A DNA stretch of 64,000 nt, taken from assembly GCA_024686575.1 (NCBI GenBank), contig GCA_024686575.1_4863.1, one strand, 5' to 3'. Below are positions 38,687 through 43,854 of the stretch, one piece after another. Position numbers and translations under genes: made by a program. Origin of the DNA: a phage. The notes below the pieces were generated by a model that worked only from the letters and a program-made list of their open reading frames with translations, had not been told where the DNA came from and searched no databases. Position 1 is the first letter of the stretch. Every line of letters begins with the position of its first letter.

Positions 38687-39022
38687 TTAACTTGCATCGT
38701 GTGGAACAGTCACCCAATCGTGCCATTTTTCAGAGTAAAGACGATAAGCCATCTTTGGATTCTGATCGACACTACCGGCCGGGTTCTCATTCCACAACAC
38801 GTACGTATATAACTCGTACGACGAAGTGTTACGGATACTTGACGTGCGGGTGACGTAGTACGTCAACCCGCGTTGGTTAAGGAACAGGCCGCTGTAATGT
38901 TCAGTGACCATGTAGTAGTGAAACGCCTGGTTGATAGTGGCGTCGGTACAGAGTTTCTTAGCGACGTCTTCTACGCCGGGATACGCCTTTAGAATGTTTT
39001 CGAGAAAACTTGCTAAAGTCAT
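38687..39022 (-). CDS. hypothetical protein
   Basis: Track ORF 38687..39070 overlaps the 3' end of the helicase gene; internal ATG (MTLASFLENIL...) reduces the overlap. Start and reality uncertain. Confidence 0.35.
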   Translation of the reverse strand: MTLASFLENILKAYPGVEDVAKKLCTDATINQAFHYYMVTEHYSGLFLNQRGLTYYVTRTSSIRNTSSYELYTYVLWNENPAGSVDQNPKMAYRLYSEKWHDWVTVPHDAS

Positions 39023-41702
39023 TCCGATGTAGGGTGGCAGCGGCTCTGCTGGACGCGGCGGAGTGAGCATGTGATTTCCTTACAACGTAGGGGGATGTCG
39101 CAATACGGAACGACAATACGACATCCTTGAGTGATTTCTGACGGGCATTCAGGTAATTGCAATGCTTCGGTACGTTATACGCATGGAATAACCACACCGT
39201 TGGGTCTATTTCACCCCATTCGTTGTGGAGAATCTTACGTGGACGACCGGCCATCTGTTCGTTCAGTTGCTGGTCTTCTACCGGGGTTGAGATGTACATG
39301 TGTACCAACCCAGGTTTATCGACCGCAGTCCCCGCTTTCCCCGGTGTGGAGATAGAGAAGTCTGCTTGGATAAAGTCGTCATACGAATCGCCTGCATTAT
39401 ATTTCGCCACCATCAGTGGATGGAATACAGGGTCACGCGATAACTTATCTTTCACATACTCGGTAAAGAACTCACACATCGCTACCGTAGCAAAGAGTAT
39501 CAAACATTTTTGGCCAGGCTGATACCGTTTAAGAAACGATTTCTCAACCACATCCCAGATCATGTTTGCGTATTCTAAATGCAAGTTCTCTTTAATCAGC
39601 TTCCCTTCGAAGAGCTTGTGGTTATACGGCGTCATCTTCGACGCCCACCACGCAAACTTCTTATCATCCAGTCGATAGTACAACGCCTTCACGTCAACCA
39701 CCGGAATGATTGGAATACTGATTCGGTACTCCATTGGGAAACGTTCTAAATACCGCTCCGCGATAAAGGCTTTACTGCTACCCGGCTTAAGAGTTGCAGA
39801 CATCTCTATCGATGCCGGCGGATTCAACATTATACCAGCCATGTAAACGAGGTGAAAATGCTCGTGCACCTCATCCATCGCCACCAGACCCACACCCAGA
39901 ACATCATAAAACGTATCCAGGTCCACAGGGTTAGTCGCAGCAGTGTTAATGTACTCCTTCAGGAAACGCTGTAGAGAGACCGTGGGGAGGATTATTACCT
40001 TAATACCACGACTATCTAGCTCTCCCGACTTACCCATCTCCAGTGCGTCGTAAATCGCCTGTACGCCTGTACAAACTAACACCTCGTCACGAAGTATACG
40101 AAGTCCTGTTTCATCATCACAGACGTCAAACAGCCATTTGGGAACGTACGACGGACGGTGAATCAATGCGGTACGGGTTCCCCGTTTAACCATCGACTTC
40201 ATACAGGTCTTGGTGTTGTGCGTAACAATCCACTGTCCCAGAACGTACAGATGTTCATCGTTGTCGACAGTAATGCACGAACCATGACTCTTCCCAACAT
40301 ACACGATAGACTTAACACGGAGTTTCAGTGTATCGTTGTATTGACCGTTGTCGCGACACAGCGCTTTCTTACGCGGGAGGTTGAACAGCATTGAAGGTGT
40401 CTTGTGCCTAATGAACACCATATAAGCCAATTTACCTTCTCTACGTTCTCCTTTGTAAGTAAAGAACGGACGTTTTGTGGATATAGTTGCAATACCACCT
40501 AACGATCTCACCAACTCCTGGACGCCCAACGCCAGCGACTCGCTGGTGCTACAATACGACGGCTGCCCTCCATCTTTATTCACGGTTCCGTCCGTGTCCA
40601 TTAAACCGCGCAGCAGCTCCCAGCGTTGCTCAATCGAGCCTTCAAAATATTCATCCGGAATATATTTTCTATCAGACCCTTTCCCTAGAAGACCGTGGTC
40701 CTGCAAATAGAGCGGCCAGGACATCGGCACTTCACGTCTGCGACGACGCATTCTATACTGATAACGATCGGCGGGAACCATCTCGGTATCGTCAGGTAAA
40801 TACTTCCTCACCAGCTCGACAGTTTCTGGATCGGCTGATGTGAAGCCTACCGCGCCATTTTCACAGGCGTGGCCGTTTCCCAAGAATGCCCCCATGAGAT
40901 ACGGATGTATTTTAAAGCACTTTTCACTTGTCTCTTCCGGTTCAGGTAACGGAATGTAGACTCGCGGGTTCGGCATTGCAATCAGTCGCTGAATTTCTTC
41001 CGTACTTCTTACCTGCCACCGAGTGTTTGGTGTGGTATTGACGTAGTAGGATTGCCAGAGATGCTCTTTACCGACCACAGTCTTACGTCCGTCAGCAAAA
41101 GTTATCTCGTAAAAATCCCAATCTTCATGCGGGTACACCGCCGTCACATTCGTCGGCTTCCCATCCCTACCGATTACCACATCCCCGACTTCTAGCTCTC
41201 CATGTAATTTCCACCCACCAGGAATCCTTACACGCTGATCCCATCTACAGACCTTTCCTCTTCCTGTTTGTATCGCGAAAACCGTTTGTGAACGCGATGG
41301 ATCTGTTGCGGCGGCTACGACTTCATTCTGATAATAGAAACGCGACTCTGGGTCTGTTTCTTCCATCTTGAATCCGTAATTATCAAACGTGCACTTATAA
41401 GGTTCTGCACGTTCAGGATGGTGCTCTGTTAGCTTGTACTGAAAAGCGTATTCAATTGCTGCTCGTTGGAGGATATGTTTAATCTTCTCAGCGAACACTT
41501 TATGGAAAATGAACGTCCTTAAAGACGGAATGTGAGCGTAGTACGCGTCACCGCGTTCCGTAGTTATTCGTCCATGTTGCTTGCCCATCTTTGGGGCGTG
41601 CATATTCTCTTCGGCCCACGCGAGTATGGCCCTTTCAGCCTGGCGGATAGGGACTTCAACCCGTACCCCCATACTCGTGTAAGTCATTTGAATTTCTACC
41701 AT
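38958..41702 (-). CDS. SF2 DExH-box helicase interrupted by an intein
   Basis: Extein motifs: P-loop-like QTGRGKV | TKT split by the intein, motif II LVAMDEVHEHF, motif III MSATLKPG, motif VI QMAGRPRKI. Likely start is M20 (MVEIQ..., ATG 41700-41702) because a terminator hairpin for the upstream gene lies at 41727-41745. Confidence 0.75.
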   Translation of the reverse strand: MVEIQMTYTSMGVRVEVPIRQAERAILAWAEENMHAPKMGKQHGRITTERGDAYYAHIPSLRTFIFHKVFAEKIKHILQRAAIEYAFQYKLTEHHPERAEPYKCTFDNYGFKMEETDPESRFYYQNEVVAAATDPSRSQTVFAIQTGRGKVCRWDQRVRIPGGWKLHGELEVGDVVIGRDGKPTNVTAVYPHEDWDFYEITFADGRKTVVGKEHLWQSYYVNTTPNTRWQVRSTEEIQRLIAMPNPRVYIPLPEPEETSEKCFKIHPYLMGAFLGNGHACENGAVGFTSADPETVELVRKYLPDDTEMVPADRYQYRMRRRRREVPMSWPLYLQDHGLLGKGSDRKYIPDEYFEGSIEQRWELLRGLMDTDGTVNKDGGQPSYCSTSESLALGVQELVRSLGGIATISTKRPFFTYKGERREGKLAYMVFIRHKTPSMLFNLPRKKALCRDNGQYNDTLKLRVKSIVYVGKSHGSCITVDNDEHLYVLGQWIVTHNTKTCMKSMVKRGTRTALIHRPSYVPKWLFDVCDDETGLRILRDEVLVCTGVQAIYDALEMGKSGELDSRGIKVIILPTVSLQRFLKEYINTAATNPVDLDTFYDVLGVGLVAMDEVHEHFHLVYMAGIMLNPPASIEMSATLKPGSSKAFIAERYLERFPMEYRISIPIIPVVDVKALYYRLDDKKFAWWASKMTPYNHKLFEGKLIKENLHLEYANMIWDVVEKSFLKRYQPGQKCLILFATVAMCEFFTEYVKDKLSRDPVFHPLMVAKYNAGDSYDDFIQADFSISTPGKAGTAVDKPGLVHMYISTPVEDQQLNEQMAGRPRKILHNEWGEIDPTVWLFHAYNVPKHCNYLNARQKSLKDVVLSFRIATSPYVVRKSHAHSAASSRAAATLHRNDFSKFSRKHSKGVSRRRRRR
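40215..41249 (-). mobile_element. intein (Hint domain) with a two-motif LAGLIDADG homing endonuclease
   Basis: 345 aa (residues 171-515 of the track ORF). N-terminal block CRWDQRVRIP...GELEVGDVVIGRDG and TxxH-like block; LAGLIDADG-like motifs PYLMGAFLGNGHA and LLRGLMDTDGTV; C-terminal blocks CITVDNDEHLYVL and GQWIVTHN followed by +1 Thr. Boundary codons checked on the nucleotide sequence. Confidence 0.8.
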
Positions 41703-41716
41703 GCTGCCCCTCTTCG

Positions 41717-41745
41717 CACAAAAAAAGAGGGGCGCAAGGCCCCTC
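41717..41745 (-). terminator. rho-independent terminator
   Basis: Hairpin GAGGGGC-GCAAG-GCCCCTC with a minus-strand T-run, directly after the beta'-like gene stop (41749). Confidence 0.65.
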
Positions 41746-41748
41746 GGT

Positions 41749-43854
41749 TTACAACTCAATTACCACAGCGGCTCCTAGGTCATCGTACAACGATGCCGGG
41801 ATTTTGTACTCGGTATAAAAACCAACGCGATCGATATTCCCCTGCTGTCCTTCAAACAACAACATCGGAATTGCCGAGCGCAAACTAATGAGCGTGTTGT
41901 GATCGACAAACCGTTTCCCTGTAGCGTTAGTAGAATCCTCACTGTCAAATCCTACTGCCGGGAACGGATTGGTTGGCGACTCTACACGAGATATCGCCAA
42001 CATAATCGCAATGTGCGTCATCGGTATACCACTCAGCTTACGCTGGATATACTTAAACGTGTCCATCAACGCATAAGTACACTGTTTCTCTGTAGCACCA
42101 CCCATTTCAACCAACGTCACCGGTTTCACACGACCTTGTTTCTTGTTCAGCTTCACAGTCGAGGCTGTGTTGATGATTTCCACAATGTCTTCGTTCTTAT
42201 CGGCAGCAATCGAACGGAGCTTGGTTTCTAAGCCGGCTACGAACTCCGCCATCGATTCAGAACGGTTGGTGTAGACCAGGACCGGGTGTTTCGGGTTCCA
42301 TCCTTTTAAGGGGATTTCTACCGTCTTCTTCTCGATACGAATGTTCGCTCGTTGTTTCAAGAAGTAGTGCAGGAACGGTTTAGAGAAGTTCCCACAAACA
42401 CCCATTCGCACATCGATAGAATCCGCAGCGATTATCTGCCCATCTTCTAAACGACGTTGGAAAGTTAAGTCGGTGATTTCTGGTAATGCCGTTTCATCAA
42501 TTGCATCGAGATCTTCATGATACGCAATCTGGCTCAGCTCCGAATAAACTTTGTCGGTAACAACCAACTCGTATTCTGACCAATTCCCACGCTGTGGTTT
42601 TGGCAGCAAGCACAACCCTTTCAGAGAGTTATGTTTGTATTCGGTCATATACTCACGCATACGTGGGGTGAGTACCAGGTTGAGCAGATAACGCAAGAAG
42701 TCAAGGTGCTTGGTAGAGAGAATTCCCTGTGTACCCTTTTCCGAGATGGACGTGGATGCCAGGTGACCTGGTGACGTACCTTCAGAGAGGTTATAAATCA
42801 AATCCCCCATACAGGTCGCACAGATGGACTGATTCGCCATCTCTTTACAGGTCATGGCACTACGGAAGACCAGCGGTTTGCCAACCAGGTCTGCGTATCC
42901 GCCTTTCTCAAATCGCAACCACGGACCATTATCGCCTTCTAAACGATAACGCATCCCCACCATCGCTTTATAGGCACGCTCATCCAGCTGCGTATCCTTA
43001 AACGTGTAGCGGTGTGCGTGTGTTGTACCGCAGTCGTCGTACGTGAAATACATCAGTACGTTTGCTGCCAGCTGCAGTTTACGTGAGGCGTATTCTGCTT
43101 CGGCAATCTTGTCAGTGTTGTACAGGTGGGAACGTGAAGTTGCACCAGATTCTTTCAAACGCGAAATAACCGAATGCATTCCGGTAAAGAAGCCTTCCCA
43201 CACCTGATTGGTGTATACACGTGAGTCAATTTCTGACGTTTTGCCGCGCACGAACGCTTGCAGTACCTGGTTCATCTTCACGGTACCGTCCAGTACCGAC
43301 ATTACGACTGGGTTATACCGCAGCGCAGGGTCTTTGAAGATTTTCTCGATAAGCTTATACGCTTCTTCAACCATATCCTGACCATCTTCATCGTAGCCAG
43401 TAGGATACTGCACTTCCCACTGACGGATGAGTTCGAAGTTCGGGTGGTCGTAGATCTCCATCATCGTATCAAAGTCGATTGTCGTACAATAGGACAGCAA
43501 GTTCTTCACTGTCATGTTGAACGCATCGGCGTAGACATGTTGACTCAGGATATAACGCGTTTCAGCAAGGTCGACACCTGCTTTACGGGCCAGTACCGCT
43601 GCTTCCGACATAAAGTCCAGATGCAGGTCATCTGTTGCTACCTGACCTGGACGATACGCCATGGTCGATGGAGTGGGCACCTGCGGATACAGACGCGACA
43701 CACCCCAATACGGCCAGCTGAGTTTGATGTGGCGACTAGACATTTCCAACGACTTACCATCGTCGAAAGTCACGTAATAACGCCCGCGTAGTTTCCACAC
43801 CTGATCAGAGTTAAGCATACGCAAATCACGTACGTGTACAGAACGACCCGCCAT
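41749..43854 (-). CDS. multisubunit RNA polymerase beta'-like subunit, C-terminal part
   Basis: 701 aa; STSISEKGTQGILSTKH resembles the beta' trigger loop (SIGEPGTQLTMRTFH); ATG overlaps the TAA of the upstream beta-like gene (TAATG). Confidence 0.6.
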   Translation of the reverse strand: MAGRSVHVRDLRMLNSDQVWKLRGRYYVTFDDGKSLEMSSRHIKLSWPYWGVSRLYPQVPTPSTMAYRPGQVATDDLHLDFMSEAAVLARKAGVDLAETRYILSQHVYADAFNMTVKNLLSYCTTIDFDTMMEIYDHPNFELIRQWEVQYPTGYDEDGQDMVEEAYKLIEKIFKDPALRYNPVVMSVLDGTVKMNQVLQAFVRGKTSEIDSRVYTNQVWEGFFTGMHSVISRLKESGATSRSHLYNTDKIAEAEYASRKLQLAANVLMYFTYDDCGTTHAHRYTFKDTQLDERAYKAMVGMRYRLEGDNGPWLRFEKGGYADLVGKPLVFRSAMTCKEMANQSICATCMGDLIYNLSEGTSPGHLASTSISEKGTQGILSTKHLDFLRYLLNLVLTPRMREYMTEYKHNSLKGLCLLPKPQRGNWSEYELVVTDKVYSELSQIAYHEDLDAIDETALPEITDLTFQRRLEDGQIIAADSIDVRMGVCGNFSKPFLHYFLKQRANIRIEKKTVEIPLKGWNPKHPVLVYTNRSESMAEFVAGLETKLRSIAADKNEDIVEIINTASTVKLNKKQGRVKPVTLVEMGGATEKQCTYALMDTFKYIQRKLSGIPMTHIAIMLAISRVESPTNPFPAVGFDSEDSTNATGKRFVDHNTLISLRSAIPMLLFEGQQGNIDRVGFYTEYKIPASLYDDLGAAVVIEL

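Follow-up and report, generated by a model that had tools for sequence, protein, structure and literature searches.

A probable class 3 intein with an embedded LAGLIDADG domain in the P-loop of an XPB-like helicase of a Seoulvirus phage

The definition of class 3 inteins in the P-loops of phage helicases and terminases dates from 2009 (PMC2807308), and a survey of them from 2016 (PMC5050341). They are recognized by a non-nucleophilic residue 1 and by a co-varying Trp-Cys-Thr (WCT) triplet at positions B:12, F:4 and G:5 of the splicing blocks, and they further have a Thr or Ser at position +1 and are typically located in the P-loops of helicase-type proteins (PMC2807308; PMC5050341). The prototype is the DnaB intein of mycobacteriophage Bethlehem, and solved structures include 6RIX and 6BS8. 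In one of the structurally known members, MchDnaB1, the catalytic residues are His65, Trp67, Cys124 and Thr143 (PMC7664689). Here we describe a helicase gene on the minus strand of a 64,000-nucleotide stretch of phage DNA (GCA_024686575.1, contig GCA_024686575.1_4863.1; hereafter the window), in which the P-loop is interrupted by an insertion of 346 amino acids. We consider it highly probable that this insertion, at GRGK/T (the slash marks the insertion point) of an XPB-like superfamily 2 (SF2) helicase, is a full-length class 3 intein in which a LAGLIDADG homing endonuclease is embedded.

The insertion shares with the class 3 inteins the non-nucleophilic residue 1, the WCT triplet, the block B His, the Thr-His-Asn (THN) C-terminus, the Thr at +1 and the location in the ATPase P-loop of a helicase-type phage protein. 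It differs from the known examples in that residue 1 is Val where Ala is usual, and in that an XPB-like SF2 helicase takes the place of DnaB or a terminase as the host. It also has a full LAGLIDADG domain, whereas the solved class 3 examples are mini-inteins, to which it is only ~25% identical over the splicing blocks. PI-SceI (the yeast VMA1 intein), the archaeal PI-PfuI and TliVMA show the same architecture, a Hint domain split by a double-motif LAGLIDADG endonuclease. However, these belong to class 1 and have Cys1 and Cys+1, they keep the Asp of both motifs and have extra DNA-recognition regions, and their identity to the window intein is ~15%.

The nearest counterparts are found in Erwinia phage Kwan (gp48), Salmonella phages JN03 and SPLA3, Escherichia phage Lh1B and Erwinia phage Rebecca (gp251), all at the same GRGK/T site. 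These orthologous inteins share with the window intein the length range (342-346 amino acids), the WCT triplet, the host gene and the position of that gene beside one for an RNA polymerase subunit, and the identity is 70% for Kwan, 59% for the JN03 type and 50% for Rebecca. The JN03-type alleles keep the Asp of LAGLIDADG motif 1, whereas the window allele has Asn126. Homologues of the intein are present in 831 phage records, mostly at P-loop K/T or K/S sites, and the window intein is an ordinary member of this widespread and already described phage intein class. An earlier description of the helicase intein of Seoulvirus or SPN3US was not found in the searchable literature, which does not prove its absence elsewhere.

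Boundaries of the insertion

An 18-kb flank in the window is 99% identical to SEGD1 and SPN3US by megablast, and judged by sequence the window belongs to an SPN3US-like jumbo Salmonella phage of the genus Seoulvirus. The helicase precursor gene (38958..41702, minus strand, as are all of its parts described below) encodes 914 amino acids plus the stop codon from an ATG, the start annotated in JN03, Lh1B and Kwan. The helicase has the same length in five further phages (JN03, SPLA3, SPLA5c, Lh1B and EC001), and it has 568 amino acids in most Seoulviruses (SPN3US, SEGD1, the SPFM series and others). Compared with intein-free helicases of 98% identity, the window protein contains a clean in-frame indel of 346 amino acids. 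This is the outcome that the initial annotation had proposed to look for, since the insert is missing at the P-loop of the intein-free orthologues. In the protein alignment, QTGRGK/TKSCMKS of SEGD1 and SPN3US corresponds to QTGRGK/VCRWDQ...WIVTHN/TKTCMKS of the window, and the insertion point is exactly between the invariant Lys and Thr of Walker A. Removal of the insert restores GRGKT as it is found in SEGD1 and SPN3US, and the SEGD1-type empty site has the sequence ACAGGTCGTGGGAAG/ACGAAGTCGTGT. The intein is located at 40215..41252, from Val1 to Asn346, an assignment supported by the indel, by an AlphaFold2 model with a mean predicted local distance difference test score (pLDDT) of 95.3, and by Foldseek. 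It separates an N-extein of residues 1-150 (41253..41702), which ends in the Walker A stretch QTGRGK in the alignment with the intein-free SEGD1 and SPN3US proteins, from a C-extein of 418 amino acids plus the stop codon (38958..40214). The first residue of the C-extein, Thr+1 (40212..40214), is the Thr of Walker A.

The initial annotation had described an insertion of 345 amino acids at 40215-41249, placed after GRGKV and beginning with an N-terminal Cys. The large in-frame insert in the P-loop and the C-terminal IVTHN followed by Thr were observed as described, but the interval was one codon short, because the indel includes the Val. Hence Val is residue 1 and the Cys is residue 2. It seems very improbable that the element is a class 1 intein of 345 amino acids which starts at this Cys (41249), uses it for the N-S acyl shift and leaves the Val in the helicase. 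The Cys does adjoin the junction (VCRWDQ), and the related allele of Lh1B has a Cys directly after GRGK. However, in the intein-free orthologues GRGK is followed directly by TKS, so that the indel takes in the Val, and a retained Val would give GRGKVTKT, displacing the Walker A Thr and destroying the motif. Moreover, the closest allele, that of Kwan, begins with VARHD and that of JN03 with ALAQGT, residue 1 directly follows the P-loop Lys in the register of all family members, and the WCT triplet is intact in the window intein.

The orthologous inteins begin with ALAQGT in JN03, ALAHGT in SPLA3, CCAHGT in Lh1B, VARHDV in Kwan and ATTLDT in Rebecca. Since residue 1 is variable and Kwan lacks the Cys, Cys2 of the window intein is probably incidental or dispensable. 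In Lh1B, EC001 and P0001, an intein which is otherwise of the JN03 type (98% identical) starts with Cys-Cys instead of Ala-Leu and keeps the WCT triplet, so that a single allele lineage can include both nucleophilic and non-nucleophilic forms of residue 1.

Splicing signature, predicted fold and proposed mechanism

The N-terminal splicing (Hint) subdomain consists of intein residues 1-105 (40938..41252) and contains block B, GKEHLW. In the phmmer alignment to 6rix and 6bs8, His64 (41061..41063) and Trp66 (41055..41057) of this block fall on His65 and Trp67 of MchDnaB1. A TxxH-like block, which had been reported for the insertion, was not found: the His is at B:10 and the Trp at B:12, with no Thr at B:7. 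The C-terminal splicing subdomain, residues 300-346 (40215..40355), contains blocks F and G. Cys326 of block F (40275..40277) falls on MchDnaB1 Cys124, while Thr344 (40221..40223), His345 and Asn346 (40215..40217) of block G fall on Thr143, His144 and Asn145, respectively. The best sequence relatives of solved structure are the class 3 mini-inteins MchDnaB1 (6RIX, E=2.4e-9) and MsmDnaB1 (6BS8), and the insert is also matched by PHROG families whose members include terminases, primases and helicase loaders with inteins, at E-values down to 5e-32 or 1e-33. A similarity of this strength is far beyond chance.

A hidden Markov model alignment of ~110 homologues shows hardly any variation in the WCT triplet. 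Residue 1 is Ala in 41, Ser in 8, Gln in 7, Met in 5, Val in 3, Cys in 2 and Gly in 2, with other residues in the rest, and residue +1 is Thr in 80, Ser in 12 and Cys in 2. Nearly all of these homologues directly follow the GxGK P-loop of PhoH-like, AAA_30, SecA-like, terminase, DnaB or other ATPases. Among 60 homologues, His64, Cys326, His345 and Asn346 are invariant and Thr344 is nearly so. With Val1, the WCT triplet and Thr+1, the window intein displays every class 3 trait that can be read from a sequence, and it lacks the residue 1 nucleophile of class 1. The core of the initial annotation, that the P-loop of an SF2 helicase harbors an intein bearing a LAGLIDADG homing endonuclease, is thus upheld by profile, structural and comparative evidence, but the class 1 chemistry implied by a Cys at residue 1 is not.

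The AlphaFold2 model of the intein, built from an alignment of 60 sequences with the pLDDT given above and a predicted template modelling (pTM) score of 0.92, shows a predicted Hint domain made up of residues 1-105 and 300-346, into which a double-motif LAGLIDADG domain (residues ~106-299) is inserted. When the whole chain was compared with the PDB by Foldseek, the matches were PI-SceI (E=4e-17, template modelling (TM) score 0.74), TliVMA, PhoVMA, PI-PfuI and 2CW7 (intein homing endonuclease II). The splicing domain matched the class 3 mini-inteins 6RIY, 6BS8 and 6RIX with a target TM score of ~0.8, and the endonuclease domain matched I-DmoI and I-Tsp061I. The Hint fold was also matched by the DnaB, GyrA and Prp8 inteins and by the hedgehog Hint domain.

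A homologous segment is present at the same position in many orthologous helicases of several jumbo phage genera, as it would be if it were a normal conserved domain of the helicase family. We give this explanation almost no weight. The segment is entirely missing, and the P-loop seamless, in most Seoulvirus genomes and in many orthologues with identities as low as 36%, unrelated host proteins (PhoH, AAA_30 and SecA-like proteins, terminases and DnaB) carry homologues of it, and the segment folds as an independent Hint and LAGLIDADG unit. The segment's presence or absence among genomes that are 98-99% identical refutes the conserved-domain explanation.

The mechanism proposed here follows that of characterized class 3 inteins and takes up the indel, fold, signature residues, polymorphism and conservation pattern observed directly at this locus. 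In the precursor the P-loop is split, and the protein is presumably inactive. Cys326 of block F would attack the Lys150-Val1 peptide bond, aided by His64, Trp66 and Thr344, to form a thioester branched intermediate, from which the N-extein would be transferred to the hydroxyl group of Thr+1. Cyclization of Asn346 with the help of His345 would then release the intein, and an O-to-N shift would rebuild GRGKT and yield the helicase of 568 amino acids, with the ligated junction peptide ...QTGRGKTKTCMK. The endonuclease of the free intein may recognize the GRGK-TK coding site where it is uninterrupted, in a co-infecting phage that lacks the intein, and repair from the intein-bearing allele would copy the intein together with some flanking sequence.

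The endonuclease domain and the probable mobility of the intein

The LAGLIDADG homing endonuclease domain covers intein residues 106-299 (40356..40937), as assigned by Pfam and by the fold match. In the profile search suggested by the initial annotation, LAGLIDADG_3 matched with E=1.7e-10 and Hom_end with 2.7e-4 (21.4 bits; cut-off 21.1). Both of the LAGLIDADG-like motifs reported earlier were confirmed: motif 1, PYLMGAFLGNG (40872..40904), with Asn126 at 40875..40877, and motif 2, LLRGLMDTDGTV (40581..40616), with Asp221 at 40590..40592. In the model, the LAGLIDADG helices are at residues 117-126 and 207-221, within a pseudo-dimeric alpha-beta-beta-alpha-beta-beta-alpha fold. Motif 1 reads GNG, not GDG. 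Further inteins of the same family were not found in the window.

Within the Seoulviruses, the site is empty in most genomes and occupied by the JN03-type intein in five. The window allele is 100% identical at the protein level to the intein of P0144, the representative of a 90%-identity cluster of 56 sequences known from ENA/Logan only. It was not found in the phage collection of GenBank, in which Kwan comes closest with 69.7%. An exact-sequence look-up of the window helicase returned no record, and none of the phage collection records matched 80% or more of the length of the helicase gene. Two P0144 contigs differ from the window at only 1 of the 1038 nucleotides of the intein, compared with 32 of the 1707 nucleotides of the exteins (Fisher p=5e-6; 3e-4 without clustered differences). 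In the 220 nucleotides upstream of the site (41253..41474, N-extein codons 77-150), three haplotypes with 76-80% nucleotide identity were observed among loci L001-L003, L005, L006, L008 and L009, whose genomes are otherwise 98-99% identical, and the haplotypes have other boundaries in the window than in the P0144 contigs, which carry the same intein. The presence and absence of the intein, its near identity between carriers and the hypervariable flanks point to recent mobility. Co-conversion during repeated homing would give such a pattern, to which ordinary recombination between co-infecting phages could contribute as well.

SPN3US is also divergent over ~160 codons downstream of the site. 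A mosaic origin of the window intein, with a Kwan-like N half and a JN03-like C half, was considered and rejected; the sliding nucleotide identity to either one is only 50-80% throughout, with no recent recombinant segment.

Several observations weigh against the interpretation as a class 3 intein with a working homing endonuclease. The generic intein profiles scored below their cut-offs (Hom_end_hint 15 bits, cut-off 32; TIGR intein_Cterm 12.7, cut-off 15.6), although weak scores are expected because the blocks of class 3 inteins diverge. Splicing, the order of its steps and endonuclease activity of the window allele are what we infer from the analysis. In motif 1, Asn126 replaces the metal-binding or catalytic Asp that is found in at least 90% of the family, so an acidic residue ends motif 2 (Asp221) but not motif 1. 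An Asp to Asn change in characterized LAGLIDADG enzymes is expected to cripple one active site, and double-strand cleavage may be lost. Finally, the low diversity of the intein relative to its flanks could stem from homologous recombination of the ordinary kind between co-infecting phages and not from homing driven by the endonuclease. The endonuclease resembles the LAGLIDADG family in its architecture, but one of its active sites could be catalytically impaired.

Asn126 is common to 11 diverged helicase-site alleles including Kwan, with identities as low as ~50%, and Asp221, Lys196 and Lys295 are invariant in these alleles. The ratio of the identity in the endonuclease domain to that in the splicing domain is 0.90 in the Asn126 group and 0.82 in the Asp126 group. 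The nonsynonymous divergence (dN) of the intein is 0.15-0.35, and synonymous sites have reached saturation in every pair available, so that its ratio to the synonymous divergence (dN/dS) can be read only qualitatively. Since dN remains at this level while synonymous sites are saturated, the Asn126 endonuclease domain does not look decayed in its sequence. LAGLIDADG enzymes with one disabled site can act as nickases and still induce gene conversion, as in I-AniI K227M (PMC3017599).

These data also bear on a less likely but serious alternative, in which the intein is competent for splicing and the endonuclease is inactive. The intein would then be stuck late in the homing cycle, it would move, if at all, by general recombination, and it would persist only because imprecise loss would kill the helicase. 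The loss of the catalytic Asp of motif 1 would fit this alternative, and so would the identity of 98-100% in the flanks between phages, since recombination needs no break. Two orthologous helicases, P0205 and P0214, have shortened inteins of 260-264 amino acids at the same P-loop site, apparently mini-inteins from which the endonuclease was deleted, so endonuclease loss does occur in this lineage. In contrast, Asn126 is shared by the 11 diverged alleles, in which the rest of the endonuclease domain is conserved no less than in the Asp126 alleles, and dN is well under the saturated dS. In addition, exteins with a difference of 1.9% contain an almost identical intein, and an enzyme with one disabled site, such as I-AniI K227M, can nick DNA and drive gene conversion (PMC3017599).

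Beyond the class 3 intein with a homing endonuclease that we favor, we raise as a speculation, with a rather small chance of being correct, that the Asn126 endonuclease may be a selected nickase or otherwise altered enzyme which drives gene conversion and serves as a weapon between co-infecting nucleus-forming jumbo phages. An intron-borne endonuclease reportedly mediates interference competition between the co-infecting jumbo phages PhiPA3 and PhiKZ. If this were true, the three states of the site in Seoulvirus and the flanks suggestive of co-conversion would be the record of an ongoing contest.

Host helicase, genome setting and significance

The helicase motifs listed in the initial annotation were confirmed in the open reading frame. 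Besides GRGK at the end of the N-extein, the C-extein contains DEVH (39864..39875), SAT (39792..39800) and QMAGRPRK (39234..39257). PHROG_16, "DNA helicase", matches the host protein at 6e-58. Searches of the extein against Pfam, NCBIfam and the PDB by phmmer or profiles gave no match above threshold, with ResIII of Pfam at 15.8 bits (E=0.014, cut-off 22.5) and DEAD at 13.6 bits (E=0.056, cut-off 26), and structure prediction and Foldseek were therefore needed for the classification. An intein-free orthologue of 98% identity was modelled with a pLDDT of 84.6, and its best Foldseek matches were XPB/Ssl2 of TFIIH and archaeal XPB, followed by Rad54, HsdR, Hef, RecQ and DEAD-box proteins. The E-values for XPB/Ssl2, Rad54, HsdR, Hef and RecQ are 1e-8 to 1e-11. 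Since GRGKT, DEVH, SAT and QMAGRPRK agree with the structural matches, the label of an SF2 helicase is supported, and the model supports an XPB-like protein with two RecA-like domains and motifs I, II (DExH), III and VI.

The gene upstream of the helicase (41749..43854, with its stop at 41749) encodes an RNA polymerase subunit, annotated as beta/beta' from relatives, and the helicase gene lies directly downstream of it in Seoulvirus, Wellingtonvirus and Agricanvirus. The 46 nucleotides between this gene and the helicase ATG contain a strong terminator-like hairpin followed by a T-run (41727..41745, minus strand; GAGGGGC-cttgc-GCCCCTC), which is outside the intein, and AGAGGGG, similar to a ribosome-binding site, precedes the ATG at 41702. 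The initial annotation had given the helicase as an open reading frame of 933 amino acids (38958..41759). The minus-strand frame exists, but its TTG start at 41759 is an artefact of the open reading frame listing, and the product has 914 amino acids. This start was rejected because the 19 codons that it adds cross the hairpin and run into the end of the upstream gene, AGAGGGG precedes the ATG at 41702, and the orthologues are annotated from that ATG.

The final 113 nucleotides of the helicase gene (38958..39070) overlap, in a different frame, an open reading frame of 127 amino acids (38687..39070), which is annotated as a hypothetical protein in JN03 and SPN3US. The helicase tail in this overlap, about the last 36 amino acids, ends in RRRRRR and is predicted to be disordered (pLDDT <50).

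The likeness to XPB/Ssl2, the translocase of TFIIH, and, in jumbo phages of three genera, the neighboring RNA polymerase beta/beta' gene hint at a transcription-related rather than replicative function. The earlier label of an essential enzyme of replication or recombination is unsupported, and a role linked to transcription is as open as the one claimed there.

In public annotations of the intein-bearing orthologues the intein is unflagged. Intein-bearing helicases and other host proteins of SPLA3, SPLA5c, PhiPA3, EL, ZPAH34 and others are mislabelled as "terminase large subunit", "DarB-like antirestriction", "gyrA" or "RNA polymerase beta subunit", names that were apparently carried over through the shared intein and not through the extein. 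The intein thus accounts both for a helicase that is 346 amino acids longer than in sister phages and for the mislabelled orthologues. A class 3 chemistry with an internal Cys, in place of one that starts from Cys1, is relevant for expression of the helicase or for reuse of the intein. The finding leaves the general knowledge of inteins unchanged. In the SPN3US-like phages the site nevertheless occurs naturally in three states, either empty or filled by one of two alleles of 59% identity. This polymorphism is convenient for the study of intein homing in jumbo phages, and it is only this polymorphism and the Asn126 endonuclease variant that might repay experiments.

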